Assembly: GCA_035542475.1 (NCBI GenBank)
Contig: DATKLL010000148.1
Location: 14,810-78,809 of the forward strand
Source of the DNA: Syntrophales bacterium
GTDB lineage: Bacteria > Desulfobacterota > Syntrophia > Syntrophales > UBA2185
Length of the DNA stretch: 64,000 nt
Direction: 5' to 3'
A model generated the notes under the pieces. The model worked only from the letters and a program-made list of their open reading frames with translations, was not told the origin of the DNA and ran no database searches. The first letter of the stretch is position 1. Every line of letters begins with the position of its first letter. The position numbers and the translations under genes were made by a program. Positions 28,164 to 59,881 of this stretch are shown in pieces.

Positions 28164-28182
28164 AATTTACTCCCTGAGAACA

Positions 28183-30726: not shown

Positions 30727-30873
30727 GATAAAGTGACCTCCTTGCTTAAAACGGTCCCATATTTTGCCGGTCATTTTACACTTCATCATTGCCCCTATTT
30801 TCCCGATAAATAATATATGTAATATATTATATAAGGTACTGAAAAAATGCAGAGTGCCTCTTTTTAGACAAAA

Positions 30874-31166
30874 TACTTCCCACGGCATCGCTTGCGATCG
30901 TTTACCAATGGGACTAATGGTGGAGAATCATTCAGTTTTAATGTTCAGCTTATGCCTACCGACAGCATATGGTTATCTATATATTACTCTTCTCGAACGC
31001 TTTTTTTGCAAAAAAATTAAATTTTTTTTGACTTGGCTTATACACCTTCTTGATGTTTTGAACAAAATTTTCAATCTCGAAACTGATTGATTTCACGCTT
31101 GATTAAATTACAGCTCTCTCAAATTCACTTTTTCTACTTTTCCCCCTCAGTCATATCCATTTGGCA
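30874..31166. repeat. par-cassette upstream region, copy 1
   Basis: The ends (ACTTCCCACGGCATCGCTTGCGATCGTTTACCAATGGGACTAATGGTGGAGAAT... and ...CACTTTTTCTACTTTTCCCCCTCAG) match 34633..34881. The centre is more diverged. Confidence 0.6.
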
Positions 31167-31175
31167 GGAATGTAG

Positions 31176-31508
31176 ATGCAAATTCTAAGGAGATTGTATG
31201 TGTACCAGGGTAAGTATTTGAATGGCCACGCCCGAACTTATCCGTTCGACATATCTATGTTACTTGATGCTATCGCTAAGGAATTCTGCTGCAAATATGG
31301 TTTTTTCATCGACTGGAAAAGAGCGCTGGATTTTGTCACGGAGCACCGCGCTGAGTGGTTCAGTAAAGTGTATGAAGTCGATAATATCGACGACGTCATT
31401 AAGAAGTACGAAGACGAAGTCTCGGCCATCATAAACAACTACATGGAGAGCCGGGATCCCGATATCGGCATAGCAGGGGAGGCACATATACGTTTGGCAA
31501 TTTTCTGA
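31176..31508 (+). pseudogene. 3' remnant of a second ParM-like gene
   Basis: TYPFDISMLLDAIAKEFCCKYGFFIDWKRALDFVTEHRAEWFSKVYEVDNIDDVIKKYEDEVSAIINNYMESRDPDIGIAGEAHIRL aligns with residues ~195-285 of the 316-aa ParM-like protein. The N-terminal actin-fold half is missing. Confidence 0.55.
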
Positions 31509-31742
31509 AATTAAAAAAGAAACTTATTGTTGTAGATTCGCCCGAGTCGGCAAAACGCAGTCGACAATTAGCATTATGGCATCCTCCAAAAGGAAGACAT
31601 TTGACACTTTTGCCACCTTTGTCGTTTCTTCAGCCTCTTAAAGCGCCAAATCCTTCCAATACGTCAATTCTTCCGATTGGCTCCCTATGAAGCGCAATAT
31701 AACAGAAAAAGAGGTTTATAACTTTTGAAGGAGATCTAATTT

Positions 31743-32693
31743 ATGATGTGCTTAAGCATCGATATCGGGTCTGGGTTCACAAAAATTTTCGACGGTACCA
31801 ATATCGTGTCGTTTCCTACAATCGTCTCAAACGCTATTGACTCTGCCGGATTCAGCGAAAAGAGTTGTATCGTTATTGATGATGAAAAATTTTATGTAGG
31901 CGATGATGTGAGGGGTCAAGAAAAATGGTATGACGCCAGGACGTCAGATTTTGTCGGTTCATCCCAATGGAGCGCTCTTCTGGCCCAGGCCATAAAAGCA
32001 TGCTCGATTCCCAATATGTATAAAAACGCCCTCATACTGGGCATCCCTGCCGAACAATATGACAAAGGAAAAGCGGCAGAACTTGTTAATGTGTTGAAGC
32101 GCCGTTATGTTTATGCCGGCAACGACCGGATCGACCTGGACTCTGCTTATATTTCCATCGTCCCTCAGGCGTTCGGAATATTTTTGAAATACCTGAACGA
32201 CAGCGGCATAGGAAGTGATTATAGAACCATGGTGATTTCCGTCCTTGACATAGGCTTTCATACGATTGACATCATTACAGTAGATAAAGGAAAATATGTC
32301 GACGACTATGCCAACAGCTTCCCCATGGGTGTATCCGTTTTGTTAGACGAGATCAGAAGAGAGGTTAACAAGAAATACCGCTATTTTATCAGCCGCGAGG
32401 ACGCTATACAATTCATACAGAATTCGCGCCTTGATTGGTTGGGCGAAACGTTTGAGCTTAAAAACGTAAAAAACATCGTAAGAAAATATGCCGCGAACGT
32501 CGAGACGATCGTCAACAATTATATGGAAGGTCATAGGTTTGACATTGGCATAGCGGGAGGTGGATGGGTTCATCTTCTCCAAAACATAGTGAAGTTAAAA
32601 AAGAAACTTTCTGCCGTTAGCGCCCTGGCAGCGGCAAATGCCATCGGTTACTGGTATTATGGAATGGAGAAATACGGAAAGGTGCAACGATAG
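31743..32693 (+). CDS. parM: ParM/StbA-family actin-like segregation ATPase
   Basis: LSIDIGSGFTKIF (phosphate 1), LILGIPAEQY, VLDIGFHTIDII (phosphate 2) and DIGIAGGG (adenosine motif). 316 aa with an AGGAG RBS. Confidence 0.75.
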   Translation: MMCLSIDIGSGFTKIFDGTNIVSFPTIVSNAIDSAGFSEKSCIVIDDEKFYVGDDVRGQEKWYDARTSDFVGSSQWSALLAQAIKACSIPNMYKNALILGIPAEQYDKGKAAELVNVLKRRYVYAGNDRIDLDSAYISIVPQAFGIFLKYLNDSGIGSDYRTMVISVLDIGFHTIDIITVDKGKYVDDYANSFPMGVSVLLDEIRREVNKKYRYFISREDAIQFIQNSRLDWLGETFELKNVKNIVRKYAANVETIVNNYMEGHRFDIGIAGGGWVHLLQNIVKLKKKLSAVSALAAANAIGYWYYGMEKYGKVQR

Positions 32694-32695
32694 TT

Positions 32696-32905
32696 ATGGA
32701 CCGGAGCGATAGACTGCAGATACGTCTCACCTTAACCAGACAGAAACACGCCGAGGCCATGGAAATACTGAGAGATGTATCCAAGTACTGGAGAAGTGAT
32801 TTCATTGCTAGAGCAATTGTTTTGCTGGACAAACAGGAAGGAAAACCCACGCTGCCAGGGAAAGCAGATGTAATTGACACAGGTGTTGCCGATATATTTG
32901 GTTGA
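32696..32905 (+). CDS. ParR-like small DNA-binding adaptor (RHH-like)
   Basis: 69 aa located 3 nt after parM. LQIRLTLTRQKHAEAMEILRDVSKYWRSDFIARAIVLL, with a paralogue at 34918..35166. Assigned by position and size. Confidence 0.45.
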   Translation: MDRSDRLQIRLTLTRQKHAEAMEILRDVSKYWRSDFIARAIVLLDKQEGKPTLPGKADVIDTGVADIFG

Positions 32906-33430
32906 GGAGCCAAGAACATAGTAAGAACATGGGCAAGAATACGGGCGATGGCAGTGGGCCATGGAAGACGGCTTTTTTCACAAAAGGGAGAGATATTGAG
33001 GACGGCATATGAATTGGAGGGGGATTTCCTGTCAGATGTATTTTAAAATTGCTTCTCACAATTCCTAGTAATATGCGAGGACAAGACAGCTCGGTTACCT
33101 GTATAATTGCCCGGCAATCCTTTCAGTCAAAATTACTATTCCTTTGCTTCCTGGGCTACCAGGTAAAAGAAACCCTTTCTTCGCATCTTTCTTTTGGTCA
33201 TCTTGTAGCTCCATTATGATAAATCCTGGTTAATCATTTTTTAGCTCACATCTATACGGTCTCTATATTTGTCTGCTGATGTGTTGTTAAGGGAAAGGGG
33301 AGAATTGTTAAATCAAAAAAGATTATCAATATCTTTCAAACGAACATAAATAAAAATAAAAGAACACATAATTTCACTTCTTTAATAAATACCAAATAAA
33401 TATTCAATGGTTATAGACTTACTGATCTGA

Positions 33431-33690
33431 TAGTTATCAGTCATCACTAACTCAGCTGATTAAAAATTATCCAGTTTGGTCTACTGGGCTGACTAAAAAT
33501 CCAGTCATAGGCCCACTTGGCCTATTAGCAATCAGTCATAGGCCCACTTAGCATATCAGTAATCAGTCATATGTTAACTTGGCATATCAGATATTGAGTC
33601 ATATGCTAACTTAGCTAATAGGTAATCAGTCATTTCCTAACTTGGGTAATTGGTAATCAGTCATTGCCTCACTGAGCTTATAAAGGAGAA
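33431..33690. repeat. array of ~8 tandem 31-bp iterons (AATCAGTCAT-N5-6-ACTTRGC-N...)
   Basis: CAGTCAT or GAGTCAT recurs at 33438, 33502, 33533, 33564, 33596, 33627 and 33658. A degenerate unit lies at about 33472. The array ends at the RBS of the ParB-like ORF. Confidence 0.75.
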
Positions 33691-33702
33691 AGGAGATCTG
33701 CT

Positions 33703-33915
33703 ATGTATTATAAAGAAATTCCCATCGACCTGATAAAGTTATTACCCCACTCTAAATTACCACTCTTACCTTCTATGTCACCAGATGAATTAGATGCGTT
33801 AAAAGAAAACATTCAAGAATTTGGAATTCTCCAGCCACTTGTAGTTACTGTAAATGGAGATGACAAGTATCTGCTACAGGTCGGCCGTAACAGTCTGCGA
33901 ATTGGTAGAAATTAG
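33703..33915 (+). pseudogene. ParB/Srx N-terminal domain fragment; the gene appears frameshifted, with remnants continuing to about 34263
   Basis: IPIDLIKLLPHSKL...ELDALKENIQEFGILQPLVVTVNGDDKYLLQVGRNSLRIG matches the ParB N-domain pattern. After the stop, another frame continues LGLSIILSFVALRNDDITDILMGFHTDGFRRH... Confidence 0.45.
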
Positions 33916-34420
33916 GTTTAAGCATTATTCTGTCCTTTGTCGCATTAAGGAATGATGATATTACTGATATACTAATGGGATTTCACACAGACGGATTTCG
34001 ACGACACTCAACACCTTGTCAAAAAAACGAGTTGTTGATCTGGCAAACCGGCCTCAAAAAAAATAAAAATGAACATCCAGAAGACCAAACACCTCAATTA
34101 TTCTTCATCAGAAGATGAATCAGCATTGTCGAAAAAATTATTAATCAAAAACAAAAAACAATTTAAAAACGCCGTTTACAAGCCTTCTGTAAAAGAAAAG
34201 ATTATCCGCTTCCAACAGGAAAAACTTCAGGAAAAAAGCAGCACCTTGAAAAAAAGAGGATAAATGGAAGAGTGAAAATGGTTGTTAAAGACATTTCTTC
34301 AAATTTTTGCGCTCGTCTAATTATCGCGACATATATAAATAGTGAAAAATGCATTAACATAAAAGAGCAAATTATCATGCTTCTTGAAAACAAGTCAGAA
34401 GAATTATTATCAATATAAGA

Positions 34421-34563
34421 TTCATGTCCAGGCCACATGACCCGGTTGGAAAAAAATAAATTCATGACAGGGAACACCTGTCCCCGTTAGAAAAAAAATA
34501 ATTTCATGACGGGGACACCTAGCACCGTAAAAAAAAACAATAAATTTTTAAGGCAGTCATGAC
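34421..34563. repeat. 3-4 tandem ~41-bp repeats, each TTCATGAC-core plus A7-9 tract
   Basis: Units read TTCATGTCCAGGCCACATGACCCGGTTGGAAAAAAATAAA, then TTCATGACAGGGAACACCTGTCCCCGTTAGAAAAAAAATAAT, then TTCATGACGGGGACACCTAGCACCGTAAAAAAAAAC..., ending ...GTCATGAC. Confidence 0.55.
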
Positions 34564-34632
34564 AAGTATAAAGATATAGAATATATCTTATTAGTCCCTG
34601 ACTTTTTGATGACAACGAGTTTCAGATAAATA

Positions 34633-34881
34633 ATTTCCCACGGCATGGCTTGTCATCGCTTACCAATGAGAACAATGGTGGAGAATTATTGAACTAGTTC
34701 GAGTTCGTCCTACGAAAAATGATATGGTTACATATATGTTACTCCCCTATTGTGATTTTTTAAAAAAAATGAAAATATTCTTCTACATTGCGTATCCTCT
34801 TGACCACACAAATCTTTCCTAATTTTTATCCTCAAACTTCACTTTTTTTGCTTTTTCCCCCCTCAGCACATCAATTTGCAG
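34633..34881. repeat. par-cassette upstream region, copy 2
   Basis: See 30874..31166. Confidence 0.6.
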
Positions 34882-34917
34882 AGTAATATGTATATAGAGA
34901 AATTGAAGGAGGCTGTT

Positions 34918-35166
34918 ATGAACCAAGCAGTATATGACAAAAAACACAAGAGGATAAGTGTCGTTTTCGACACAAAGCTGCATGCCAGGGCAATCGAGAT
35001 ATTGAAAAATGTGGCCCCATATTGGCGCAATGATTTTATCAGCGATGCGATAGTGGCTTATAACAATAAACGTGATGATTTGGGGGCAATGATTGAAGAA
35101 GGCGCAAAGGCAAGCGAGGCATCACGTGATGCCAAATTTATTGATCAAGCTTTTTTTAACTTATAA
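34918..35166 (+). CDS. ParR-like small protein, paralogue 2
   Basis: ISVVFDTKLHARAIEILKNVAPYWRNDFISDAIVAY parallels the 32696..32905 product. GAAGGAGG RBS before ATG 34918 (track ORF starts at 34876). Confidence 0.45.
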   Translation: MNQAVYDKKHKRISVVFDTKLHARAIEILKNVAPYWRNDFISDAIVAYNNKRDDLGAMIEEGAKASEASRDAKFIDQAFFNL

Positions 35167-35310
35167 AGGAGACAGACCATGGAAAACGAAAACGTAATGA
35201 ATGAAGAAACCTGTACTGATTTTCGTCAAAATACGTTCCACAGGTACAGTCCATACGTCAAATAAAATTACTTAGCGGCGCGCTGTTATTATAATTTGAG
35301 GCGAGGATCG

Positions 35311-35682
35311 ATGGAAAGAACGGGGTCGGAGAAATTGAGCGTTGACACTAATTCCGAAAATGGCATAATGCTTACCGAGGAGGTCGCCCGGTACCTGCGA
35401 AAAAGTTCAAGTTGGGTTTATAAAAACTGGCGTATCCTGGGCGGCGTGAAGCTCGGAGGTTCTCTGCTCTTTCCTAGAAAGGAGGACCTGAATGAGCGTT
35501 TATTCGGTAAGAGGGAAAGGGTGGCGATACGACTTCACCCTGAGAGGGATCAGGTACACGGACGCCTGGTTCAGAACAAAGTCAGATGCAAAGCAGGCAG
35601 CAGCGAAGAGAAAGGAGGATATACTAAGCCCGAAAGCGACAATAGAAACCCCGACAGACATGGGCTTCTTGGAACTGGTTAA
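35311..35682 (+). CDS. excisionase/AlpA-like helix-turn-helix protein (3' limit uncertain)
   Basis: MLTEEVARYLRKSSSWVYKNWRILGGVKLGGSLLFPRKEDL is an HTH_17-type pattern located directly upstream of the integrase. The ORF tail overlaps int by 190 nt in another frame, so the functional end is unclear. Confidence 0.5.
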   Translation: MERTGSEKLSVDTNSENGIMLTEEVARYLRKSSSWVYKNWRILGGVKLGGSLLFPRKEDLNERLFGKRERVAIRLHPERDQVHGRLVQNKVRCKAGSSEEKGGYTKPESDNRNPDRHGLLGTG

Positions 35683-36592
35683 CAGAAGGCTCGATCATGT
35701 GAAGGCCTATAATTCCGAGAGCCATTACATGGAGCATATCGGTCTCGCCCGGAGATGGATCAGGAGATGGTCAAAGCTGAAATGCAGTGATTTGAAAGTC
35801 GACGAGATTGAGAGATTCGTTGTCGAACGACGGAAGGTTTCGGCATACACTGCGAACAAAGAGATTCGTTATCTCAGGGCCCTCTTTAATTTTGGAATAA
35901 AGAGAGAGTGGACAGCGAAGAACCCCACTGCGAATATCCCGTTTCTTCCGGTGGAAAAGAAAATAAAATACATTCCTTCAAAGGAAGATGTGATGAGGGT
36001 GATACTGGCTGCCGATCCCGCTATTCAGAATTACCTGTGGACGGTCAGGGAGACGATGGGCCGGATAAGTGAGATCAACCGGCTGACGTGGCAGGACGTG
36101 GACTTCGATGGGCGATATGTCGTGCTCTATACCCGGAAGAAGAGAGGAGGGCACTTAACGCCTAGGAAGGTACCGATGACGGGAAGGCTGTACGACGTGC
36201 TGTCTCATATGTACAAGCAGAGGGATGTAACAAAGCCGTGGGTCTTCTGGCGTCGGCAATGGAACAGAAAAAAACGGGAGTGGACGGAAGGCCCGTACAA
36301 AATGAGAACCAAGATAATGGAAACGCTTTGCAGGAAGGCCGGTGTAAGGTATTTCCGTTACCATGCGATTCGTCATTTCGGTGCTTCGACGCTTGACAGT
36401 GCGAATGTGAATGTCGGGTCGATCCAGCGTATCCTGGGTCACGAGAACAGAACAACGACGGAAATATATCTCCATTCAGTCGGTGAATCTGAGCGTAAAG
36501 CGATGGAGATTTTTGAACGAGTCACAAACTTTTCACACACAGATTCACACACAGAACTGAGAAGGGAAAAGAGCGATTTTGTAAGTTACTGA
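35492..36592 (+). CDS. int: tyrosine recombinase / phage-type integrase
   Basis: 366 aa. SAM-like N-domain, a catalytic region with R (ETMGRISE), HAIRHFGAST, GHENRTTTEIYLH (H-x-x-R ... Y). Ends 6 nt from the tRNA 3' end. Confidence 0.9.
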   Translation: MSVYSVRGKGWRYDFTLRGIRYTDAWFRTKSDAKQAAAKRKEDILSPKATIETPTDMGFLELVNRRLDHVKAYNSESHYMEHIGLARRWIRRWSKLKCSDLKVDEIERFVVERRKVSAYTANKEIRYLRALFNFGIKREWTAKNPTANIPFLPVEKKIKYIPSKEDVMRVILAADPAIQNYLWTVRETMGRISEINRLTWQDVDFDGRYVVLYTRKKRGGHLTPRKVPMTGRLYDVLSHMYKQRDVTKPWVFWRRQWNRKKREWTEGPYKMRTKIMETLCRKAGVRYFRYHAIRHFGASTLDSANVNVGSIQRILGHENRTTTEIYLHSVGESERKAMEIFERVTNFSHTDSHTELRREKSDFVSY

Positions 36593-36598
36593 CATTAT

Positions 36599-36675
36599 TG
36601 GTGCCCCCGGCGCGACTCGAACGCGCGGCACACGGATTAGGAATCCGTTGCTCTATCCGCCTGAGCTACGGGGGC
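36599..36675 (-). tRNA. tRNA-Arg (anticodon CCU)
   Basis: Reverse complement is GCCCCCGTAGCTCAGGCGGATAGAGCAACGGATTCCTAATCCGTGTGCCGCGCGTTCGAGTCGCGCCGGGGGCACCA. It folds as a cloverleaf with a 7-bp acceptor, GCTC/GAGC D stem, ACGGA/TCCGT anticodon stem with loop TTCCTAA, GCGCG/CGCGC T stem with TTCGAGT loop, and an encoded CCA. Confidence 0.85.
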
Positions 36676-38334: not shown

Positions 38335-39333
38335 TTATCCTTCCCTCTGGCCTGTGTCTTGTGCGAAGAGGGCCGTTACAAATTCTTCACTATTGAAACT
38401 CTTTAAATCATCCAGTCCTTCGCCGATACCGATATAGCGGATGGGTATGTTGAGTTCCCTGGCAATTCCTATAATGACTCCGCCCTTTGCTGTTCCATCC
38501 AGCTTAGTTAATATAATTCCCGATACTCCTATTTCATCATAAAACATCTTCGCCTGAAGAACGGCATTTTGGCCGGTCGTGGCATCGAGCACGAGGAGGA
38601 TCTCATGCTGACCACCCGGGAGTTCCCTTCCAATGATGCGCTTCATCTTCTTCAGCTCCTCCATCAGATTTACCTTGGTGTGAAGCCTGCCAGCCGTATC
38701 AATAATTAAGACATCAGCCTTCCTGGTCTTTGCTGCGTCAATGGCATCAAAGACAACAGCGGAAGGATCCGCGCCGATTTTCTGTTTGATCAGGGGCACA
38801 TCCACCCTCTGGCTCCAGATTTCAAGCTGTTCGATCGCTGCCGCCCTGAAAGTGTCGGCGGCAACAAGCATGATGGACATACCGTCTTTTTTCAAATTAT
38901 GCGCGAGCTTGCCAATGGTTGTCGTCTTGCCTGTCCCGTTGACGCCCACCACCAGTATAGTAAAGAGCCCATTACGCGGGACGTAAAAGGATGATTCATT
39001 TTTTCTCAACGTGTTCGTGATGGTATCCTTCAGGACTTTTTTGAGCAGTGCAGGATTACCGAGTTCTTTTCTCCTGACCTGCTCCTTCATTTTTTCGATC
39101 AGCTCGTAGGTAAAGGCAGGACCGACATCAGCTGTTATCAGAGTTTCCTCCAGTTCTTCGAACAGTTTCTGATCAATGATCCTTTCCCCCAGGAGGAGGT
39201 CATCAATATTTTTAACGAAACTTTTCCTTGTCCTGGTAAGACCGGCCTTCAGTTTCTCGAAAAAACCCTTCTTTTCATTGTCTTCCATTCTCAAATCCAT
39301 ACCATAACTTGATTTATTTTTTCTTATAACCAT
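38335..39333 (-). CDS. ftsY: signal recognition particle receptor FtsY
   Basis: NG domain with GVNGTGKTTTIGKLA, DTAGRL and TKLDGTAKGG. Confidence 0.9.
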   Translation of the reverse strand: MVIRKNKSSYGMDLRMEDNEKKGFFEKLKAGLTRTRKSFVKNIDDLLLGERIIDQKLFEELEETLITADVGPAFTYELIEKMKEQVRRKELGNPALLKKVLKDTITNTLRKNESSFYVPRNGLFTILVVGVNGTGKTTTIGKLAHNLKKDGMSIMLVAADTFRAAAIEQLEIWSQRVDVPLIKQKIGADPSAVVFDAIDAAKTRKADVLIIDTAGRLHTKVNLMEELKKMKRIIGRELPGGQHEILLVLDATTGQNAVLQAKMFYDEIGVSGIILTKLDGTAKGGVIIGIARELNIPIRYIGIGEGLDDLKSFNSEEFVTALFAQDTGQREG

Positions 39334-39806: not shown

Positions 39807-42503
39807 ATGGAAACAAATAAGATTTCACTGACTATTGACGGAAAGGAGGTTCAAGCCACTGCCGGACAGACAATTCTGGAGGTTGCCCGGGATAACGGTA
39901 TTTATATACCGACGCTCTGTCAGTATGCGAATACCACAAATGTCGGTGCGTGCCGTGTGTGTGTGGTCGAGGTTGCGGGCGCGAGAACCCTTGTGGCCTC
40001 CTGCTGCATGCCGATAAACGCAGGCATGGTTGTCAAAACCGATACACCGGCTGTGAGGGCAGCCCAAAGACTGGTTGTCGAGCTACTCTGGTCTTCGGGC
40101 GATCACAACTGTCTTACGTGCGAACAGAACGGTGCCTGCGAACTGCAGAATCTGATTTACTGGTTACAGATCGAAAAACCACGGTTTGAAATCGAATCCC
40201 CCGGTTATGAAATTGAAAAAACCAATGTTATGATTCAGAGAGACCTCAACAAATGCATCCTCTGCGGCAGATGTATCAGGGCCTGTAATGAGATTCAGGT
40301 CAATGAAGTCCTTGATTTTTCCATGCGGGGATTCCGCACTAAGGTCGGTCCAGCCTTTGATGCGGATTATATCGATTCCACATGCGTCTTCTGCGGCGAG
40401 TGTGTAGATTCCTGCCCGGTAGGTGCAATCACGTTTAAACAGGCAAAATTTCAGGGCCGTCCATGGGAATTGAAAAAGGTAAAAACGACATGCACATACT
40501 GCGGCGTCGGCTGCCAGATGGATCTTAACATCCATAACGGTAAGATAATCAAAGTTACAGGCAATCGTGACTATGGTCAACCTAATGAGGGCAGACTCTG
40601 TGTCAAAGGCCGTTTCGGACTGGATTTCGTCCAGCATCCTGACCGCCTGAAAACCCCCCTTGTTCGGAAAAACGGGGAGTTGAAAGCGGCAAGCTGGGAT
40701 GAGGCGTACAGCTTCATTGCTGATAAACTTCATTCTATCAAGAAGAAAAACGGTCCTGACAGTATCGCGGGGTTCTCCTCTGCAAGGGTTACGAATGAAG
40801 AAAACTATCTCTTCCAGAAATTCATGAGAGCGGTAATCGGCACCAACAATGTAGATCACTGCGCACGTCTTTGACACTCCTCCACAGTGGCCGGTCTGGC
40901 CGCTGCCTTTGGAAGTGGTGCAATGACCAATTCTATCGATGAACTCGAATATACCAACGTCATGCTCGCCATAGGAACAAACACAACAGAGAATCACCCT
41001 GTTATCAGTTCTAAAGTAAAGCGAGCTGTTCGTCTGCGCGGTGCAAAACTGATCGTCGCTGATCCGAGAAAAATCGACCTGGTGAAATATGCCACCATAT
41101 GGCTGCGCCAGAAGCCGGGCACTGACGTGGCCCTCTTAAACGGCATGATGAACGTAATTATCGCTGAAGGCCTCTACGCGAAGGAATATGTGGATACGCG
41201 CACCGAGGGCTTTGAAGCCCTGAAAAATGTAGTGGAGAAATTTACCCCGAAGTATTCGGAAAAGATCACAGGAGTCCCTGCCGAAGACATTAAAGCGGCA
41301 GCCCGTTTGTATGCGGGTGCGGGGAAGGCTGCAATCCTCTACACTATGGGTATCACACAACACGTCACGGGCACGGACAACGTCAAGTCCTGCGCGAATC
41401 TTGCCATGCTCTGCGGCTATGTGGGGATTGAGGGAGGGGGCGTCGATCCTCTGAGAGGGCAGAATAACGTCCAGGGTGCATGTGATATGGGCGCCCTTCC
41501 TGTCGTCTTCACCGGGTATCAGCCGGTAGCTAATGATGAGTCAAGGGCAAAATTCGAGAAGGCCTGGGGTGTCACTTTACCGCCCAAACCGGGTCTTACC
41601 ATCGTGGAAACGTTGAATGCCGCCCATGAAGGAAAGGTGAAAGCCCTCTATGTCTGCGGTGAAAATCCCATGCTCTCCGATCCTGATTTGACCCATGCAA
41701 AAGAAGCATTGAATCATCTGGATCTCCTTGTCGTACAGGATATCCTCCTCAGTGAAACGGCGCAGCTTGCGCACGTTGTCCTGCCCGCCGCCTGTTTCGC
41801 TGAAAAAGATGGAACCTTCTCTAACACCGAAAGGAGGGTGCAACGCGTCAGAAAGGCTGTAGATGCTCCCGGCCAGGCAAAACCGGACTGGGAAATCATT
41901 TCCGAACTGTCCACGAAAATGGGCTATCCTATGAAGTATGCCGCACCTGAATATATTATGAAGGAGATCAACCTGCTAACACCAAGCTATGCAGGCATCA
42001 CTTATGGGAGACTTGAAAAAGAAGGCATTCAGTGGCCGTGTCCCAATACGGATCATCTGGGGACCAAGTTCCTGCATAAAGACAGATTCAGCAGAGGGCT
42101 CGGATTATTCCACGCCATAGATTATATTCCTCCGGCAGAAGTCCCGGATGCTCAGTATCCGTTTGTAATGACCACGGGTCGTGTCCTTTACCAGTATCAC
42201 ACCGGTACCATGTCGCGCCTCTCCAAAGGAATAACGCAGAGATGCCCGGAATCCCTGGTAGAGATTAACCCGGGTGACGCAAAAAAACTCGGGATCAAGG
42301 AAGGCCAGTTGACTAAGGTCTCGTCACGACGCGGCATCGTCCAGGCGAAGGCTCAGGTAACGGAGCGCGTGCCTAAAGGGACCGTCTTCATGAATTTCCA
42401 TTTTAAGGAAGCAGCCGTTAATTTGCTCACGAACCCCGCTCTCGATCCGATTTGCAAAATTCCGGAATATAAGGTATGCGCCGTCAAAGTGGAAGCGGCA
42501 TAG
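39807..42503 (+). CDS. fdhA: selenocysteine-containing formate dehydrogenase alpha subunit with N-terminal 2Fe-2S/4Fe-4S (NuoG-like) domains
   Basis: Track ORFs 39807..40874 and 40887..42503 are in the same frame, joined by TGA 40872..40874 in the context [31 protein letters not shown]-terminal Cys clusters are followed by a MopB molybdopterin domain and a C-terminal barrel. Confidence 0.9.
40885..40905 (+). promoter_or_regulatory. bacterial SECIS-like hairpin
   Basis: CAGUGGCC-GGUCU-GGCCGCUG is an 8-bp stem starting 10 nt after the UGA. The apical GGUCU resembles the loop of E. coli fdhF SECIS. Confidence 0.6.
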
Positions 42504-46163: not shown

Positions 46164-46676
46164 CTAGAGTGTTTCCTTTTCTCCCGAAGTGAAATTGCTT
46201 CCGAGGTAAGCATTTACAAGTTCTTCGTTATTCTTAACCTGTTCCATGCCTCGCCGGATCATTGCCCCAGCCTGGGAGCGGGCAGGAGCGGCGGGGGCAT
46301 AAAGGAGTTCCTCCAGGAGTTCCGGTTCGGTTGCGCCGCGTGGAAATAATTCAACGCCTCCTTCTCGTGGCGGCGGTGGTGCGGTGAGATTGAATGCTGC
46401 GGACAGAAGGAGGGGATCGCTCTGGTTTCCATCATCATCTCTTGCGGTGACCGCTATGTAATAGATCCCCCGTTTCCTGGGAAATTCAGGCCATTCATCA
46501 GGAATAACTATCTCAGTTTTATCTCGTGGGATGGTTTTTGAAATCACCCCCGGAGTGTCTCCCCATGAAAATGTTGCCGGATTTATCGGGTGGGCTTCTG
46601 TGCCGAGATAGATCACATAGCCTGTGGCTCCGGCCACAGATTCCCACCATATGCACCTTTTCTGAATGAACGGCAT
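46164..46676 (-). CDS. hypothetical protein with FN3-like N-domain and Pro/charged disordered tail
   Basis: [15 protein letters not shown]...[17 protein letters not shown] resembles a fibronectin-III beta-sandwich. Lies 30 nt downstream of the ParA-CBM48 gene. Confidence 0.4.
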
Positions 46677-46705
46677 AGTCTGGCCTTCCCCAGGGAATTA
46701 TTCGG

Positions 46706-47770
46706 TCAGATACTTATTATGCTGTCGAAAGACCCGAAATCATTACTCTCGACATTTTGATTCCTGTGATCAATGTTCCATTCCCCGTCGACGAGGAATT
46801 TGTATCGGTAAGTGCCCGGCGGCAGTTCCATCCGCTTCTCCCAGAACCCGTTTTCGCCGCGCAGCAACCTGCTTCCTTCGTCTGCAGCCCAATCATTGAA
46901 TTCACCAACAAGGTAGATTTCATTTGCTGCCGGCGCTTCAATGACAAAGGTCACCTCCCGCATGTCCATTCCGGACACTGCTTCATTCTGCTTCCACTCC
47001 GGCACATGCTGGCCGCACAGCATTATCTCTTCCGCGAGCAGCACGTAATCTCTCGCGCCGTTTGATGTCGGGTAGAAACTGATGACTGATGCGCCTTCAG
47101 AGACCGCTCGCTTAAGGGCCACGTTATGCCGTATGACGGTTTGAAGCAGCCTGTCACCGAAAAATGACTCAACTTCATCAAGTATTGACTGCGAATACTT
47201 GGTGCGTTTATCGAAAAGGGTGGCGAGGGCGCTGACCTGGGGGGCGCGACCTGTTTTCCTTCCCACCAGTTCAATCATTCCCAGAAGCTTGCCGACACCG
47301 AAAAGGGTAAAGGGGCTCATATCGATAGGGATGATGACCCAATCGGCCGCTCTCAAGGCATTGAAGGTGAGAAAGCCCAGACTTGGGGGACAATCGATCA
47401 GGGCGTAATCGTATGAATGGCAGTCGGATAAGACTTTGCGGAGCACTGAGACCGCATCTTCTCTGTCGTTGAGTTCCTGCTCAAGGGTGGATAGTTGTGC
47501 ATTCGACGGCAGGATATCGAGATCCGGAGAGACCGGCACAATACAGCTTCCAAAAGGACGTTTCTTCTCCGGTTTTTCTGTCAGCACGTTATACGCCGAG
47601 CTGTCGGGTGACTGGTCGTCTTTTCGCAGGGCAAAGGAAGCGTGGGCTTGGGGGTCCAGGTCGATTACAAGCACCTGCTTTCCGTTCTTGGCGAGGGCTG
47701 CACCAAGGTTTATGGCCGTGGTTGTTTTGCCGCACCCGCCTTTTTGATTTGCAATGGCAATCGTCTTCAT
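46706..47770 (-). CDS. ParA/MinD-type ATPase fused to a C-terminal CBM48 / AMPK-beta glycogen-binding domain
   Basis: Deviant Walker A IANQKGGCGKTTTAINLG, then DLDPQ and IDCPPSLG. The C-terminus VTFVIEAPAANEIYLVGEFNDWAADEGSRLLRGENGFWEKRMELPPGTYRYKFLVDGEWNIDHRN is a CBM48/AMPK1_CBM pattern. AGGAGG RBS before ATG 47770 (track ORF starts at 47824). Confidence 0.8.
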   Translation of the reverse strand: MKTIAIANQKGGCGKTTTAINLGAALAKNGKQVLVIDLDPQAHASFALRKDDQSPDSSAYNVLTEKPEKKRPFGSCIVPVSPDLDILPSNAQLSTLEQELNDREDAVSVLRKVLSDCHSYDYALIDCPPSLGFLTFNALRAADWVIIPIDMSPFTLFGVGKLLGMIELVGRKTGRAPQVSALATLFDKRTKYSQSILDEVESFFGDRLLQTVIRHNVALKRAVSEGASVISFYPTSNGARDYVLLAEEIMLCGQHVPEWKQNEAVSGMDMREVTFVIEAPAANEIYLVGEFNDWAADEGSRLLRGENGFWEKRMELPPGTYRYKFLVDGEWNIDHRNQNVESNDFGSFDSIISI

Positions 47771-48170
47771 GTCGGGTCCTCCTTGATATTTGATAAGGCA
47801 TTGCTTTTCACGGTGTAAGTGCAAGGAGAAGTAATTCTAGATTTAAGAGGATTGTTGACGCAAAATATGGAAGGCAGAGCGGTTAAGCACGGCAGGTATG
47901 TGTAGGATTGGTTAATCTTCATAAGAAGCAATCCAAATTTTAATTGCTTTTTCTTATATCATAATCACCAAGAAAAAAACATTATTTATTTCAATTTGGG
48001 ATAAGCATTCTCTGATCAGCCCATAATGCCCCGTCCTCAACTATTCCTTCCGATTAAGATCGCGCTTATCTTTCATCCTGAATTCAATGAACCGGTGCGG
48101 TGACCTTAGGCGTTGCTTCGTATTTGAAGCGGAGGATATGTTATATTTGGATTGATATGTCTCACGTAGA

Positions 48171-48569
48171 TCATGTTAGATCATATTCATCTAAGTTCCA
48201 TCTTTCAAGCTTCGCAAAAGCATCTTGAGCTGCTTGTAAAATTAATTCTAACTTAACGGGCTTCGTAAAATAATCATCAAAGCCCGCCCTGCGACAGTCT
48301 ATCAAACCAAATAGATCTGTGTACCCGGTGAAAGCGTAAATAATACCCACGTCATTATCTATTCTTATTTTCCTACATAATTCCATACCGCTGATACCAG
48401 GAAGCTTGAGGTCCAAAAACATGACCATGAAACTTTCTCCCCTAAGAATATCCAATGCCGTTTCTGCGCTTTCAGCTAAGCGAACCACATAACCATTTTT
48501 GCTAAGAAATTCCTGGAGCATATTTCTGATAACTTCTTCATCATCAACAACAAGAATCTTCTTTTCCAT
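48171..48569 (-). CDS. single-domain response regulator (CheY-like receiver)
   Basis: KILVVDDEEVIRNML...MVMFLDLKLPGISGMEL...TGY...KP. Confidence 0.85.
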   Translation of the reverse strand: MEKKILVVDDEEVIRNMLQEFLSKNGYVVRLAESAETALDILRGESFMVMFLDLKLPGISGMELCRKIRIDNDVGIIYAFTGYTDLFGLIDCRRAGFDDYFTKPVKLELILQAAQDAFAKLERWNLDEYDLT

Positions 48570-48610
48570 ATTCCATCCCTCTTTAGCGATCTTTCAAGTC
48601 TTACAACGGA

Positions 48611-49786
48611 TCAACTTATTGATTTGTCAAGATCAATTATTTTCATTTCCTCCACGTAAGGTTTAGTCTCATGCTTTGTTATTTTCATAAGTTTCTTTGT
48701 AATCCCCGCAATCCTCGCTATTTGCTCCTCCATAATGTTTACGCGACTGTTTTCCGGATGTTCTTTTCCAAGGTTTAATGAAAGCATCTCTGCGTGTCCT
48801 GAAATAGCTTGCAAAGGTTGATTTAGTTCATGACATACCATCCCTGCGGTTTCAACTATAGCGGATAGGATCTCACGGCGATGCTTTTCTTCTTCGGCTT
48901 TCAGCCGATCTGTTATATCTCTTGCTGTTGCCTGAAAACCAACAACATCTCCCTGCTCATAAATTAGTTGGACCTGTTGGCCAAACCACTTTTCCTCCCC
49001 GTCTCTCGTTACAATTGGAAACTCATAATAGGTAGTCGGCGTTTTCTCCAAAATTTGCTTCTCATAAAATCTATCCAACGTTTCATGATAATCTTTTCGG
49101 ATAACAGAGTGAAAGTGCTTTCCGAACAACTGTGAAGTCGCATAGCCTGTTACTCGCTCGGCAGCAGAATTAAAATAGGTGAAGATCCCTTGAAGATCGG
49201 TGGTATAAACTATATCACCACTGTTTTCCACAAGATGCCGATACCTTCTCTCCCTCTCCTTAATCATGTTCTCCAGAAGACTATGTTCTGTAATGTCTGT
49301 CTGGTAACCTTCGTAATAAAGGACTTTACCATTATCATCAAATACCGTTCGTGCACTGATGGAAATCAGGATTCTGCTCCTATCTGTTCGCAATATTTCA
49401 ATCTGAAAATCCTCAATATGTCCTTCATCATCAAGAATATTTTTGAACAAATCGCGTTGGTGCGGATCCACATAATGTTGTTTTGCTACATCGGTAATCT
49501 TCGACATCATCTCATTTGGAGAATCATATCCGTACATCTTGGCCACGGCCGGGTTAACCCGAATAAACTGACCTTCAGGCGTGCTCTGAAATATTCCTAC
49601 CAAGGCATTTTCAAATACACCCCGATACCACTCTTCACTCTTCTTCAATTCCTCTTCAGTACTCTCACGCTCGTTGATGAATTCTTTCAGCCGTAATACT
49701 TCTTGTCTCAAGGAAATCAATTCTTCGATCAGTTGTGTCTCGCTTTTTGATTTTTCCTTCATATTCTCCTCGCTTGAGATGAACAC
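48611..49786 (-). CDS. PAS-PAS-DHp sensor protein lacking a recognisable HATPase_c domain
   Basis: N-terminal coiled coil and two PAS modules (WYRGVFENALVGIF...; RYRHLVENSGDIVY...). H-box VCHELNQPLQAISGHAEML, but the ORF ends about 60 aa later with no N/G1/G2 boxes. Confidence 0.7.
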   Translation of the reverse strand: MFISSEENMKEKSKSETQLIEELISLRQEVLRLKEFINERESTEEELKKSEEWYRGVFENALVGIFQSTPEGQFIRVNPAVAKMYGYDSPNEMMSKITDVAKQHYVDPHQRDLFKNILDDEGHIEDFQIEILRTDRSRILISISARTVFDDNGKVLYYEGYQTDITEHSLLENMIKERERRYRHLVENSGDIVYTTDLQGIFTYFNSAAERVTGYATSQLFGKHFHSVIRKDYHETLDRFYEKQILEKTPTTYYEFPIVTRDGEEKWFGQQVQLIYEQGDVVGFQATARDITDRLKAEEEKHRREILSAIVETAGMVCHELNQPLQAISGHAEMLSLNLGKEHPENSRVNIMEEQIARIAGITKKLMKITKHETKPYVEEMKIIDLDKSIS

Positions 49787-56314: not shown

Positions 56315-59300
56315 CTAGTTCAGGGCAACGGATACCATCGTGGAAATACCCTGTTTTTGCATGGTAATGCCAAACAGATATTCGGCAACCTCCATTGTCT
56401 TCTTGTTGTGGGTAACCATGATTATCTGAGAACCTGCCGAGATATCTTTGACAAGGTTATTAAACAGGAATATGTTTGCATCATCAAGAGCGGCGTCAAC
56501 TTCATCTAAGACCACAAAGGGCACCGGCCGATATAGCAGAATCGCAAAAATCAAGGCAATGGCAGCGAGGGACTTTTCACCACCGGATAATAAACTTATA
56601 CTCTGCGCTCGTTTTCCTGGAATAAGTATGTCGATATCCACGCCCGTCTCCAGCAGGTCTTCGCTGTCTGTCAGTCTCAGCTCACCCCTGCCTCCCGGGA
56701 ATATCCTGCTGAACACTTCCTGGAAACATTTGTTGACTGCCTCAAAAGTCTCCGCAAATCGCTTCCGGGATTCAATATTTATTTTTGTTATCGTCTTCTG
56801 GAGCGCATCCATCGAAGCATTAAGGTCTGATACCTGGCCCGTAAGAAATTCAAAACGCTCTTTCAATTGCTCATACTCACTGAGCGCCAGCAGATTTACT
56901 TCACCGAAATTTTCCACGAACTTTCTGTTTTTTTCGAGTCGGCCGCTTAGTTCCTGTACAGCCTGCTCATCAATTCTCTGAAATTCGGGGACCAACGCCT
57001 GTAAGTCCACATAATATTTTTCTTCCACGCCCTTTTTCAAGCTATCCATCTGGAAAGAGTACTCGCGATATGTCATCTCCAGTTCACCGGATTCCTTGAC
57101 TACTTCGTCGAGGGTTTTTTTAACCTCCCGGAGATCCGTCTCACGGTTTCTCAATAAAGCCTCCCTTTCCTGCTGCAATCTCTTAACCTCTGAGAGAGTC
57201 TCTTCCATGGCTTCATGATCCGAGGACAGGCTTTCCAGGAGATCCTGTTCAGCCGAAATTTGACTGGTTATATCCTCAACTTCGTGTTCACTATTCTTCA
57301 GTTCGCCGATCCTGACATCGATTTCACGGATCGTATCCGTCCTGTCGGCTTCCAGTCTGTCTATAGCCTTAAGATCGGCATTTCTCTTTTCTTCAAGGGA
57401 GGCCAGATGAACCTTTTCCCTGGTAAGACATTCTTCATGTTCTTCTGCCTTCACCTTCAGTGCATCCCATTTTTCTTGGAGAGAAGATATGGCATGGTTG
57501 ATTTTTTCTTCTTCAGCATCAGAGGAAGCGATTCCTTCCTTTATCATCTTGATCTCTTCCAAAGCGTTATCTTCCTCAGACTGAAGACTCTCACAACTGA
57601 AATCGATGATTTTTATTCTCTGCTCGATCCCCTTTATTTCAGATTCATATCTTTCGACATCTTTCCGCTTGCTGTTGACCCGTAGCTCAAGATCGCGGAT
57701 CTCTGATTTTAGCTGAAGTAATTCTTCTTCCCATTGCAGTATACGTGATGCTGCTTCTTTTTTCCTTTCAGTTTCCTCTTCAAGCAGCGTATTTAACCGG
57801 TCAACTTCTTCGTCGAGTTCGGCGATCTCCCGCTTAATACGGAGGAGACTCTTTTCACCGTTTGTCCTGCTTCCGCCCGTTAACACTCCATGCGGATTAA
57901 TAACGTCACCTTCCGATGTAACGAACGTGCCCCTGAAACCGTTTCGCTCCCATAGAGAGATACCACTTGATAGGTTCGGTATTAACAGTACATCCCCCAA
58001 AAGATAGTCGGCTATTTTTTCAAAGCCCTGATGGACATTAACCATGTCAATAAGCCTGACCGCCCCCCTGAGATGCTCTGCCTCAGAGTTCGAGGCATTA
58101 TTTCTGACTTCAAGCGGGACAAAGCTCCCCCTTCCGGACGAAGAACTCTTCAGATAGTCGATTGCCTTTACGCCGTCTTTCTGGCTCTTGACTACTATAT
58201 ACTGGAGCTTCTCGCCCAGGACAGACTCAACAGCCGTTTCGTAATCCTTGGGGACATCGATAACATCCGCAACCAGCCCGAGGAAGGTCTCACCGGGCGG
58301 CAAATCGAAATTACCGACCTTCCCTGCTTTCATAATTGACTTTGTGCCTTCACTACACCAGGCATAGTTTTCCTGTAACTCTCGCAATGATGTAAGCCGC
58401 GACGATTTTTTCCCCGTCTTTTCCTTTTTCCCCGAGATATCCTCTTCAATCACCTGCAGGTCATTTTTTACTTTTTCCAGCTCATGGGAAGCAGTATTTG
58501 CTTTACTCCCCAGATCACTCAGTGTCTCTTCATCCGCTTTCAGCCCCGACATCAAGTCATCGAGATTTTCGCGGGCAGCGGCAAGGCTTTCCTTGTTTTC
58601 ATTTATTTCCCGGATGTCCCTCTCTTTTCTTTTCCTGATATCCTCAATTCCCTTTGTGAAACCGGTCAGCGTATTTTTTAATCTTGCCTTCTCCGTAACA
58701 ATCTCGATAAACCCCGCCTTCTTTCCTTCAAGTTCTGTTTGGACGGATCTGGCCGCTGCCTTGTGTTCTTCAAGAGCCGACTGGTTTTGAAGGACACTAT
58801 TTCTGACACTCTGAATCTCCTCACCGGATTTGCTCGTCAACATGTTAAGGGCATCCACCTCTTTACTCAAGCTTTCCTGCCGCAAACGGAGTGATTCTAT
58901 TTCCGAAGAATTTTTCGATTTTTGTGAAGCTATATCTTTTATTTTATCCTTAAGATGTTCTACCCCCTGTTCCTTGATGTTGATCGAGTTTCTGATGTCG
59001 TAGAGTTTTTCCTGGTATTCCGAAACGGATGTTTCATTTTCAAGGACTTCCGCTTTTATCCCTTCGATTGAAGCTTCAAGCTCATTCAGTTTCGTCCTTA
59101 CTTCCAGATCTCTCTTAGCAAGCTCGTCACGCGTTTTCCCCAGTGCTTCCTTTTGTCCGGATATATCTGTGTACGTCTGAAGCGCCAGCGTCAACTCTGT
59201 CTCTTTGATTTCCTTCTTTAAGGTCTTGTATTGCTCCGCTCTCTTGGCCTGCCTGGATACCGCATTAAGTTGAGATTTTACCTCTCTGATTATATCATTC

Positions 59301-59881
59301 AAGCGAACTATGTTCAGCCTCGTTGCCTCCATCTTCCTGGAAGCCGATTCTTTTCTAACTTTATATTTCGATATTCCCGCGGCGTCTTCAATGAACTGCC
59401 TTCTGTCTTCGGGCTTTGCCTCTACAAGATTGGCGACACTGTTCTGTTCCACGAGAGAATAAGTTCTGACCCCGGTTCCCGTACTCATAAAAAAGTCCCT
59501 GACATCGATCAGCCTGCAGGGAATCTTGTTTATGGCGTATTCGCTTTCGCCTTCCCGGAAGAGTCTCCTCGAAATCATAACTTCGCTGCATTCTTCATAC
59601 GCCCCGGGGAATTTACGACCGTTGCAGTCCAGGATCATCGATACTTCCGTCATGCCGATGGGGGCAGCATTTTCAGCGCCGTGAAAGATGACATCGTCCA
59701 TCTTTTTTCCGCGCAATGATTTAACCCTCTGTTCGCCCATTACCCAGCGGATCGCATCAACGATGTTGCTCTTCCCGCATCCGTTAGGACCAACAACCGC
59801 GGATATGCCTTTAGAAAAATCGATGGCAATTTTGTCCCGGAAAGATTTAAATCCGGTTACTTCCAGTCTCTTCAGTCTCAT
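56315..59881 (-). CDS. smc: chromosome segregation protein SMC
   Basis: 1188 aa. N-terminal Walker A GPNGCGKSNIVDA, long coiled coils, a hinge (GLVADVIDVPKDYETAVESVLG), and C-terminal LSGGEKSLAAIALIFAI plus VLDEVDAALD. Confidence 0.95.
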   Translation of the reverse strand: MRLKRLEVTGFKSFRDKIAIDFSKGISAVVGPNGCGKSNIVDAIRWVMGEQRVKSLRGKKMDDVIFHGAENAAPIGMTEVSMILDCNGRKFPGAYEECSEVMISRRLFREGESEYAINKIPCRLIDVRDFFMSTGTGVRTYSLVEQNSVANLVEAKPEDRRQFIEDAAGISKYKVRKESASRKMEATRLNIVRLNDIIREVKSQLNAVSRQAKRAEQYKTLKKEIKETELTLALQTYTDISGQKEALGKTRDELAKRDLEVRTKLNELEASIEGIKAEVLENETSVSEYQEKLYDIRNSINIKEQGVEHLKDKIKDIASQKSKNSSEIESLRLRQESLSKEVDALNMLTSKSGEEIQSVRNSVLQNQSALEEHKAAARSVQTELEGKKAGFIEIVTEKARLKNTLTGFTKGIEDIRKRKERDIREINENKESLAAARENLDDLMSGLKADEETLSDLGSKANTASHELEKVKNDLQVIEEDISGKKEKTGKKSSRLTSLRELQENYAWCSEGTKSIMKAGKVGNFDLPPGETFLGLVADVIDVPKDYETAVESVLGEKLQYIVVKSQKDGVKAIDYLKSSSSGRGSFVPLEVRNNASNSEAEHLRGAVRLIDMVNVHQGFEKIADYLLGDVLLIPNLSSGISLWERNGFRGTFVTSEGDVINPHGVLTGGSRTNGEKSLLRIKREIAELDEEVDRLNTLLEEETERKKEAASRILQWEEELLQLKSEIRDLELRVNSKRKDVERYESEIKGIEQRIKIIDFSCESLQSEEDNALEEIKMIKEGIASSDAEEEKINHAISSLQEKWDALKVKAEEHEECLTREKVHLASLEEKRNADLKAIDRLEADRTDTIREIDVRIGELKNSEHEVEDITSQISAEQDLLESLSSDHEAMEETLSEVKRLQQEREALLRNRETDLREVKKTLDEVVKESGELEMTYREYSFQMDSLKKGVEEKYYVDLQALVPEFQRIDEQAVQELSGRLEKNRKFVENFGEVNLLALSEYEQLKERFEFLTGQVSDLNASMDALQKTITKINIESRKRFAETFEAVNKCFQEVFSRIFPGGRGELRLTDSEDLLETGVDIDILIPGKRAQSISLLSGGEKSLAAIALIFAILLYRPVPFVVLDEVDAALDDANIFLFNNLVKDISAGSQIIMVTHNKKTMEVAEYLFGITMQKQGISTMVSVALN

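Follow-up and report, generated by a model that had tools for sequence, protein, structure and literature searches.

ParA/MinD ATPases are a general means by which bacteria place chromosomes, plasmids, carboxysomes, chemoreceptor arrays and flagella. One system of this kind, McdAB, spreads a large cytoplasmic cargo other than DNA, the carboxysome, over the nucleoid. Storage granules can also be linked to the nucleoid, as polyhydroxybutyrate granules are by proteins of the PhaM/PhaF type, and are then spread and inherited by both daughters; these proteins are passive, histone-like DNA-binding phasins without an ATPase. To our knowledge, no ParA/MinD-type system has been described for glycogen, the most widespread carbon store, and neither a ParA-CBM48 protein nor a glycogen-directed ParA system was found described in open-access papers and bioRxiv preprints. 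The locus analysed here lies in a stretch of 64,000 nucleotides (the window; contig DATKLL010000148.1, positions 14,810 to 78,809, assembly GCA_035542475.1) from a Syntrophales bacterium. It consists of gene A, which encodes a ParA-type ATPase with a C-terminal carbohydrate-binding module of the CBM48 family, and gene B, which encodes a small partner protein with a fibronectin type III (FN3)-like domain. We tentatively read A-B as a self-contained two-gene ParA-type system whose cargo would be a glycogen-like particle, tethered to or positioned on the nucleoid with B as regulator.

By sequence, the closest described system is ParABS. Soj (Thermus thermophilus, 1WCV/2BEK; Helicobacter pylori, 6IUB) is the best match of A, which shares its deviant Walker A with the signature lysine as well as Walker A' and B. 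A also keeps part of the basic DNA-binding patch, and partners in its family carry a ParB-like LG(R/K)GL peptide. The differences are that here there is no ParB or parS, that A has the additional CBM48 and a family-specific Walker A cysteine, and that its ParA_partition score is below the cut-off. The arrangement of McdAB, an orphan ParA-type ATPase paired with a small and partly disordered partner gene, resembles that of A-B, and McdA structures (6NON/6NOO) are detectable but much weaker matches of A (E ~6e-15) than Soj. In McdAB, however, it is the McdB partner that binds the cargo, whereas in A-B the cargo-binding module is part of the ATPase; B is FN3-like rather than McdB-like, and there are no carboxysome genes in the window.

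The CBM48 has its counterpart in the rat AMPK beta1 module (1Z0M/1Z0N). W100, K126 and W133 of the latter are identical in A (W294, K324 and W331), and L146, T148 and N150 are conservatively replaced by F (F345), S and D (D349). In A, however, the module sits on a bacterial P-loop ATPase and not on a kinase scaffold subunit, and it lacks the S108-type regulatory loop, where there is an indel of three to four residues. PhaM/PhaF are alike in concept, a storage granule being tied to DNA, but A is unrelated to them in sequence. BcsQ is another ParA/MinD-fold protein that serves a polysaccharide system, and A scores above the Pfam CBP_BcsQ cut-off (42 bits against 21.3); it is far under the cut-off of the BcsQ equivalog TIGR03371 (77.3 against 157.85 bits), no bcs genes are found nearby in the window, and BcsQ has no CBM. 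As the defining partners, sites or equivalog scores are lacking, A-B is not a member of ParABS, McdAB or BcsQ. By analogy it probably works most like McdAB-type cargo positioning, except that the cargo binder is on the ATPase.

On sequence criteria, gene A belongs to the ParA/MinD (deviant Walker-A, SIMIBI) ATPases, since the signature lysine, the Walker A' and B aspartates and the family hidden Markov model (HMM) scores all pass. Its Walker A (KGGCGKTT) occupies residues 10-17 (nucleotides 47720-47743), Walker A' (DLDPQ) residues 37-41 and Walker B (IDCPP) residues 125-129. In hmmscan searches, Pfam AAA_31 matched residues 1-172 (E = 7e-49, 166.6 bits against a cut-off of 27) and CbiA residues 4-228 (E = 8.5e-23, 81.1 bits against 25.4). 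The nearest NCBIfam model for the N-terminal part was ParA_partition (NF041546), at 118.8 bits under its equivalog cut-off of 180. Among solved structures, the first 254 residues matched T. thermophilus Soj best (E = 8e-41), followed by other ParA/Soj proteins. The Walker A cysteine (KGGCGKT) sits where Soj has valine (KGGVGKT), and at least 90% of 76 family members keep it; two species have another residue in place of the glycine that follows, giving GGCSK or GGCAK.

The C-terminus of A is a member of CBM48/AMPK1_CBM by the same kind of test, and glucan binding is predicted for it. AMPK1_CBM (PF16561) matched residues 281-353 (E = 1e-12, 48.5 bits against a cut-off of 26.8), CBM_48 (PF02922) matched residues 268-332 (25.0 against 22.4 bits) and X25_BaPul_like was also above its cut-off (31.4 against 27 bits). 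Among solved structures, the last 97 residues match the carbohydrate-binding modules of AMPK beta1 and beta2 best (E = 6e-9). In a structure model the module has a predicted local distance difference test (pLDDT) score of ~88, and residues 254-267, in the linker that precedes it, are below 50; across the family this linker varies from 9 to 72 residues and is not conserved in sequence. The architecture of A is almost certainly that of a Soj-like ATPase, a flexible linker and an AMPK-beta-type CBM48.

More than 120 clusters in a protein search match full-length A at 58-90% identity, with the same ParA plus AMPK1_CBM architecture, and are named in databases only as 'chromosome partitioning protein' or 'AAA family ATPase'. 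A species scan with the C-terminal half of A as query and one genome per species gave at least 412 relatives. The best 80 of these include 76 distinct species with full-length ParA-CBM48, on which the family alignment below rests, so that the family is found in at least 76 species. Carriers include Syntrophaceae, Syntrophorhabdales, Desulfobacterales and others among the Thermodesulfobacteriota, very many Candidatus Omnitrophota (with the complete genome of Ca. Velamenicoccus archaeovorus), metagenome-assembled genomes (MAGs) labelled Planctomycetia and one Latescibacterota MAG. The ATPase residues K10, K15, T16, D37, D39 and D126 are invariant (76/76 each). So are the tryptophans that correspond to sugar-stacking W294 and W331, and the other sugar-site equivalents are nearly so (K126 is K/R in 75/76, N150 is D/N in 76/76 and L146 is F/Y in 72/76). 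Against the closest orthologue (L007; L numbers denote loci of the family or of paralogues of the B domain), the ratio of non-synonymous to synonymous substitution (dN/dS) was 0.20 for A, indicating purifying selection, and the FN3 domain of B likewise gave 0.19 (0.33 for B overall). As the catalytic and sugar residues are invariant and dN/dS is low, ATP turnover and sugar binding both appear to be under selection.

In a library of representatives at 50% identity, only ~9 full-length ParA-CBM48 proteins were recognisable in the top 150, swamped by proteins with tandem CBM48. Many of the latter have ~480 residues and four tandem AMPK-type repeats, and there are giants with up to 19. The abundance of such tandem-repeat and giant proteins suggests that the AMPK-type module is in use far beyond glycogen enzymes.

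In all 11 distinct Syntrophales-type loci (L001-L013), a homologue of B lies 30-170 nt 3' of A on the same strand, as in the window, while all other neighbours differ from locus to locus. Among the loci compared, B is not detectable outside this clade. It has no Pfam or NCBIfam match, no signal peptide and no transmembrane segment, and its homologues (33 clusters) are all unnamed. The AlphaFold2 model has a mean pLDDT of 71, rising to 85-90 over most of the sandwich core, and the top 20 Foldseek matches of the sandwich are all fibronectin type III domains (E down to 1.6e-4; template modelling scores, normalised to the target, of 0.6-0.69). The C-terminal tail has the consensus TII-x-RGLEE(V/M)(K/R)-x-N-x-E(V/L)-x-x-AYLG, for which B of the window has IRRGMEQV...AYLG, and it is conserved in all B proteins that follow ParA-CBM48. 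Paralogues with an FN3-like core that stop right after the core are instead fused to receiver domains or placed behind a ribbon-helix-helix (RHH) gene, away from ParA-CBM48. In such cases with the core motif PDEWPEFP, among them L087:7789-8609 and L090:326-1081, the core is behind an overlapping RHH_1 gene or fused to a receiver domain. On sequence grounds the core is therefore a more general, unannotated cytoplasmic module, since it also occurs without a tail and with RHH_1 or receiver partners. The tail, by the same comparison, is the element that tracks with the ATPase, because tail-less copies of the core are not found beside ParA-CBM48, and it is a candidate docking or stimulating peptide for A.

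An earlier note on this DNA, made from its letters alone, had seen in A an N-terminal ParA/MinD deviant Walker-A ATPase and, over the last ~85 residues, the CBM48/AMPK-beta pattern. The AAA_31, CbiA and Soj matches agree with the first, and the second is confirmed by PF16561 and PF02922 above cut-off. The same note took B for an FN3-like beta-sandwich with a Pro/charged tail, as AlphaFold2 and Foldseek also find, and what it described from one locus proves to be the architecture of a large family, with B as the constant neighbour in Syntrophales-type loci.

At nine loci that have neither B nor a membrane partner, the gene right after ParA-CBM48 encodes a protein that starts KKLG(R/K)GLEDI(S/A)xxFLS. 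We take KKLG(R/K)GLEDI to be the hallmark of the N-terminal peptide by which ParB stimulates ATPases of the Soj type. Its carriers are otherwise diverse: small unannotated proteins (166-218 residues), a 281-residue protein (L075) and degenerate ParA/MinD-fold proteins of 303-328 residues without Walker A. The same peptide is borne by a DUF4912 protein beside a GH57 gene in L041; nothing relevant to DUF4912 was found in open-access papers and bioRxiv preprints. The tail of B resembles the peptide of these partners, and the resemblance may serve as a lead. Homology of B with the membrane partners found in Omnitrophota was rejected (HHalign probability < 1%). By eye, the B tail seemed to share a motif, E-x-[LV]-x-x-x-Y-[LF], with the peptides at the N-terminus of the membrane partners; the link was dropped after profile tests. 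With the B-tail HMM, membrane partners did not rise above background (two in the top 40 of 3452 open reading frames (ORFs), both matching away from the N-terminal peptide), and with an HMM of the ParB-like class-2 peptide none was in the top 100 of 4882 ORFs.

Outside the Syntrophales-type clade, in Omnitrophota, Latescibacterota and other Thermodesulfobacteriota, genes of alpha-glucan metabolism recur with ParA-CBM48 in operon-like clusters. GH57 is present within ~8-kb flanks at 31 of 67 non-Syntrophales loci, and, in the main Omnitrophota type, directly upstream at 24 of the 29 loci with sufficient flank. The gene order in that type is GH57 (PF03065, E = 1e-64), a single-pass membrane protein, ParA-CBM48, a small membrane or nitroreductase-like gene and a Lys-rich protein, often with an AlgE-like porin further 5'; an Alginate_exp porin precedes GH57 in 16 loci. 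The single-pass membrane protein gene is directly 5' of ParA-CBM48 in at least 38 Omnitrophota loci. Its products fall into two related families (191 and 245 residues) and have a conserved cytoplasmic N-terminal peptide. GlgC is found 4-7 kb away in three loci. Downstream of ParA-CBM48 in L082 and L084 there are a free AMPK1_CBM protein, GH57 and starch-synthase-like Glyco_transf_5 enzymes, and in L041, L058 and L062 ParA-CBM48 begins a cluster on one strand that extends downstream as far as GH57, the gene just upstream of GH57 in L041 encoding the confirmed DUF4912 protein. These associations are not phylogenetically independent, yet they come back in different lineages with the genes in different order, and the chance of a gene of one or two copies landing this close is by our estimate, which was not computed, well under 1%. 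Because GH57, GlgC, Glyco_transf_5 and free AMPK1_CBM neighbours recur in other phyla, the ParA-CBM48 family quite probably has a role related to alpha-glucan.

The detailed gene orders are as follows. In L041:7491-14525, L058:7509-16600 and L062:6527-13071, ParA-CBM48 is followed by a degenerate ParA-fold protein with N-terminal KKLGKGLEDIS, two unannotated genes (~220 and ~260 residues), a Lys-rich protein of 392-512 residues (DUF4912 confirmed in L041 only) and GH57; in L058 two further genes separate the Lys-rich protein from GH57. The cassette of Ca. Velamenicoccus archaeovorus (L054:3479-10042), shared with ~30 other Omnitrophota loci, consists of an AlgE-like porin (confirmed by Pfam as Alginate_exp on L066 only), GH57, the membrane protein, ParA-CBM48, a DUF4870-like or nitroreductase-like gene and, last, a protein with a histone-like Lys-rich N-terminus. 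The N-terminal peptide of the cassette membrane protein, KKEIYEHLAxIYLDASSKKKK, is invariant, and its C-terminal domain is jelly-roll-like.

The residues of T. thermophilus Soj that contact non-specific DNA are R182, R194, R208 and R211 (PMC6393308). At the corresponding positions of A in the window R189 is basic and E201, H215 and A218 are not; basic residues lie near the non-basic positions, with R214 beside H215, and K220 and R221 after A218. Family-wide, K/R occupies the four positions in 75/76, 61/76, 0/76 and 45/76 species, R189 being R in 74/76, and K220, two positions past the fourth, is K/R in 75/76. Binding of nucleoid DNA by A is plausible from this pattern. In the mechanism that we propose, A with ATP would form a sandwich dimer, as in Soj, which would bind non-specific nucleoid DNA via the partly kept basic patch (R189 and K220, with R214 and R221 nearby). 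The two tethered CBM48 modules of the dimer would grip glycogen by avidity, and granules would thus be tethered to and spread over the nucleoid instead of gathering at the poles. The C-terminal peptide of B (IRRGMEQV...AYLGS) would dock on the A dimer and stimulate ATP hydrolysis and release, and the FN3-like domain would provide a second contact.

Imaging in Escherichia coli shows that glycogen without an anchor condenses at the old pole; it is shared unequally between the daughters, pushes the nucleoid aside and skews division (PMC12706056). A ParA dedicated to binding glycogen would address this problem directly. It is possible, and we put it no higher, that glycogen-like granules are a new cargo class for ParA/MinD ATPases, the first with a CBM48 cargo binder on the ATPase, and that interchangeable partners supply a ParB-like stimulating peptide. 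Possible partners of this sort would be the FN3-like protein with its tail, small disordered proteins, degenerate ParA-fold proteins, DUF4912 proteins and membrane proteins. If this is true, anaerobes such as Syntrophales and Omnitrophota gain active control over the spacing and inheritance of a carbon store, by a mechanism that is unusual in that the ATPase, and not the partner, bears the cargo binder. With at least 76 species from three or more phyla the family is large; its members carry generic names only, so that many annotations of 'chromosome partitioning protein' in MAGs could be improved.

Several results weigh against glycogen positioning on the nucleoid. No glycogen gene was found in the 64-kb window (Pfam on the larger ORFs and seed searches) or within ~8 kb in any Syntrophales-type locus. 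The DNA-binding patch is only partly basic in the window protein (E201, H215 and A218 are not; two of four positions are basic if these are taken as R189, 201, 218 and K220), so that its DNA binding is uncertain. The likeness of I-x-RGLEE in the B tail to LG(R/K)GLE is short, and B proteins rank 10 and 41 of 4882 ORFs with the class-2 peptide HMM. The neighbouring partner in Omnitrophota spans the membrane once, and with an AlgE-like porin close by this speaks for the envelope and not for the nucleoid in that group. The suggestion of the earlier note that the cargo could be glycogen consequently stands only in part, with the sugar residues conserved in 76 species and the glucan clusters of other phyla in its favour and no glg gene near Syntrophales-type loci to its detriment. 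That note let its idea hang on two further points, and on both the outcome is favourable: CBM48 is matched, and there is no constant link to another known system.

Among the alternatives, the strongest, which we nevertheless regard as rather unlikely, is that A is an ATP-switched scaffold or energy-state switch of glycogen metabolism, without DNA matrix or ratchet. Its bivalent dimer would cross-link or coat alpha-glucan and recruit or exclude enzymes such as GH57, or would sense glycogen as AMPK-beta does, with B as modulator. Such a role explains the same architecture and alpha-glucan gene context as positioning does. The partly basic DNA-binding positions of the window protein fit it, as does the placement of the cargo binder on the ATPase, which is atypical of ratchet systems, and the tight operon link to GH57, Glyco_transf_5-type synthases and GlgC in other phyla agrees with a metabolic function. 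On the other hand, the ATPase domain is nearest to chromosomal Soj proteins, R189 and K220 are almost invariant, positioning systems typically have a partner with a ParB-like stimulating peptide, and Syntrophales-type loci have no linked enzyme gene.

It is conceivable, if improbable, that the CBM48 fold has been re-used in A for protein-protein contact, much as the CBM of AMPK-beta touches the kinase domain as well, and that the cargo, set by the FN3-like domain of B, is not a glucan. The lack of glg genes near A-B in Syntrophales-type loci suits this explanation, and a domain that is also fused to receiver domains or found beside an RHH protein looks like a general interaction module. Against re-use of the fold speak the invariant residues, which are the sugar-binding ones (W294, W331, K/R324, D/N349), beyond the fold core, and the alpha-glucan gene context in three other lineages.

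The membrane partner directly 5' in Omnitrophota, the porin that precedes GH57 and the CBP_BcsQ match of A would fit a factor for envelope-associated assembly, export or uptake of alpha-glucan, BcsQ-like or like the cytoplasmic kinase module of a split bacterial tyrosine kinase (BY-kinase) that a membrane partner activates, in which CBM48 would hold cytoplasmic glucan. We consider this distinctly improbable, as B of the window has no signal peptide or transmembrane segment, there is no transporter or synthase in Syntrophales-type loci, A falls short of both the BcsQ equivalog and the BY-kinase model TIGR01007 (27.6 against 108 bits for the latter), and it has neither a C-terminal tyrosine cluster nor an amphipathic membrane helix. 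Highly improbable is an ordinary chromosome or plasmid partition ParA with an extra domain, to which the database name, the Soj proteins as closest solved relatives and smc at 8.5 kb might point, since there is no adjacent ParB, no parS (≤ 3 mismatches, 64 kb) and no repeat array, the ParA_partition score is under its cut-off, the genomic context apart from B varies among loci, and the downstream partner is FN3-like and not of a DNA-binding fold.

Positioning of a glycogen-like particle remains our tentative reading of A-B, whose features in the window are collected in Table 1.

Table 1. Features of the A-B locus, in positions of the window
Feature	Position	Strand	Basis
Gene A: ParA/Soj-type ATPase with C-terminal CBM48, 354 residues	46706..47770	minus	ORF and Pfam matches
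Gene A ribosome-binding site AAGGAGG	47778..47784	minus	7 nt 5' of ATG, direct reading of the sequence
ParA ATPase domain of A, residues 1-253	47012..47770	minus	T. thermophilus Soj alignment and invariant motif residues
Interdomain linker of A, residues ~254-270	46961..47011	minus	Low pLDDT, no conservation
AMPK-beta-type CBM48 of A, predicted alpha-glucan-binding module, residues 271-354	46709..46960	minus	AMPK1_CBM match and 1Z0M/1Z0N alignment
A-B spacer, 29 nt, with B ribosome-binding site GGGGAAGG	46677..46705	minus	Sequence; no terminator
Gene B: cytoplasmic partner protein, 170 residues	46164..46676	minus	ORF; homologues directly 3' of A
FN3-like beta-sandwich of B, residues 1-110	46347..46676	minus	AlphaFold2 strands at 7-95, Foldseek, invariant PDEWPEFP and GNxSDP motifs
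Disordered linker of B, rich in Pro and charged residues, residues 111-133	46278..46346	minus	pLDDT < 50 at 114-133, poor alignment
Helical C-terminal peptide of B, residues 134-160	46197..46277	minus	Helices 135-149 and 151-158, conserved
AT-rich intergenic region 5' of A, 400 nt, probable A-B promoter region	47771..48170	minus	No notable ORF

The translation start of A is most likely the ATG at 47770, because the ribosome-binding site is close upstream, and the longer ORF with a TTG start that extends to 47824 is probably not the one in use; the stop codon is at 46706-46708. A terminator scan found no minus-strand terminator in the A-B spacer and the same-strand spacing is conserved, from which co-transcription of A and B can be inferred. 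No convincing sigma-70 match was reported in the 400-nt leader 5' of A, so that the promoter there is presumptive, and the leader gave no Rfam family, riboswitch or known RNA.

The locus is chromosomal, and its sequence comes from wetland and peat metagenomes, with MAGs of Syntrophaceae and Syntrophales as closest relatives. Nearby genes of the window include smc (56315-59881), ftsY (38335-39333) and a selenocysteine formate dehydrogenase, and further neighbours encode a major facilitator superfamily transporter, rubrerythrin, a Usp protein and thioesterases. None of the ~30 annotated neighbours is ParB-like, nor did a ParB-box regular expression find such a protein among all ORFs; with the negative parS scan and the lack of any centromere-like repeat array in the window, this upholds the remark in the earlier note that parB or parS-like context is missing. 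Membership of A-B in an anti-phage defence system was rejected, as no PADLOC system matched: A had only a match local to the P-loop (residues 3-40, 27 bits) and B had none.

Directly 5' of A (48171-49786, minus strand) are genes for a receiver-only response regulator (132 residues) and a PAS-PAS-HisKA protein, which ends 18 residues past HisKA and has no HATPase_c domain. They were rejected as conserved regulators, being beside A in no other locus examined. Some paralogues of the B domain are fused to receiver domains, which may be compared with the receiver gene 5' of A. In one clade of Thermodesulfobacteriota an ORF of 73-85 residues, or a conserved leader, is directly 5' of ParA-CBM48 (L002:7763-7984, L003:7727-7984, L005:7727-7969); this conserved ORF of L002-L006 was rejected as a part of the system here, as neither the window nor L001 has it. 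Just 3' of A-B, the closest relative has a PilZ-domain gene (L007:3022-3417), and PilZ-like ORFs, recognised by eye with no Pfam run, are within ~4 kb in nine Omnitrophota loci. The PilZ neighbours may hint at control by cyclic di-GMP.

Genes for a second storage polymer are on the same contig, ~17 kb from the ParA-CBM48 operon. This polyphosphate cluster (22997-29694, minus strand) encodes a CYTH-CHAD protein (22997-24610), two small ORFs, PPK1 (25956-28163) and Ppx/GppA (28183-29694). A low-GC island at ~28000-36600 (GC ~0.40 against ~0.50 elsewhere) contains a ParM-like actin (ALP_N and MreB-like_C, 31743-32693) and a phage-type integrase (35492-36592); it is probably a mobile element that has integrated and brings an actin-type partition gene of its own. 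The alpha subunit of formate dehydrogenase (39807-42503, plus strand) is encoded by two ORFs joined by an in-frame TGA at 40872-40874 (…CARL-TGA-HSSTVAG…), which is likely to be a selenocysteine codon and not a gene break. The window also has a type II secretion or type IV pilus set (1925-10524), with T2SSE ATPase, secretin and a T2SSK-like protein, and a large subtilase is encoded at 12439-14952.

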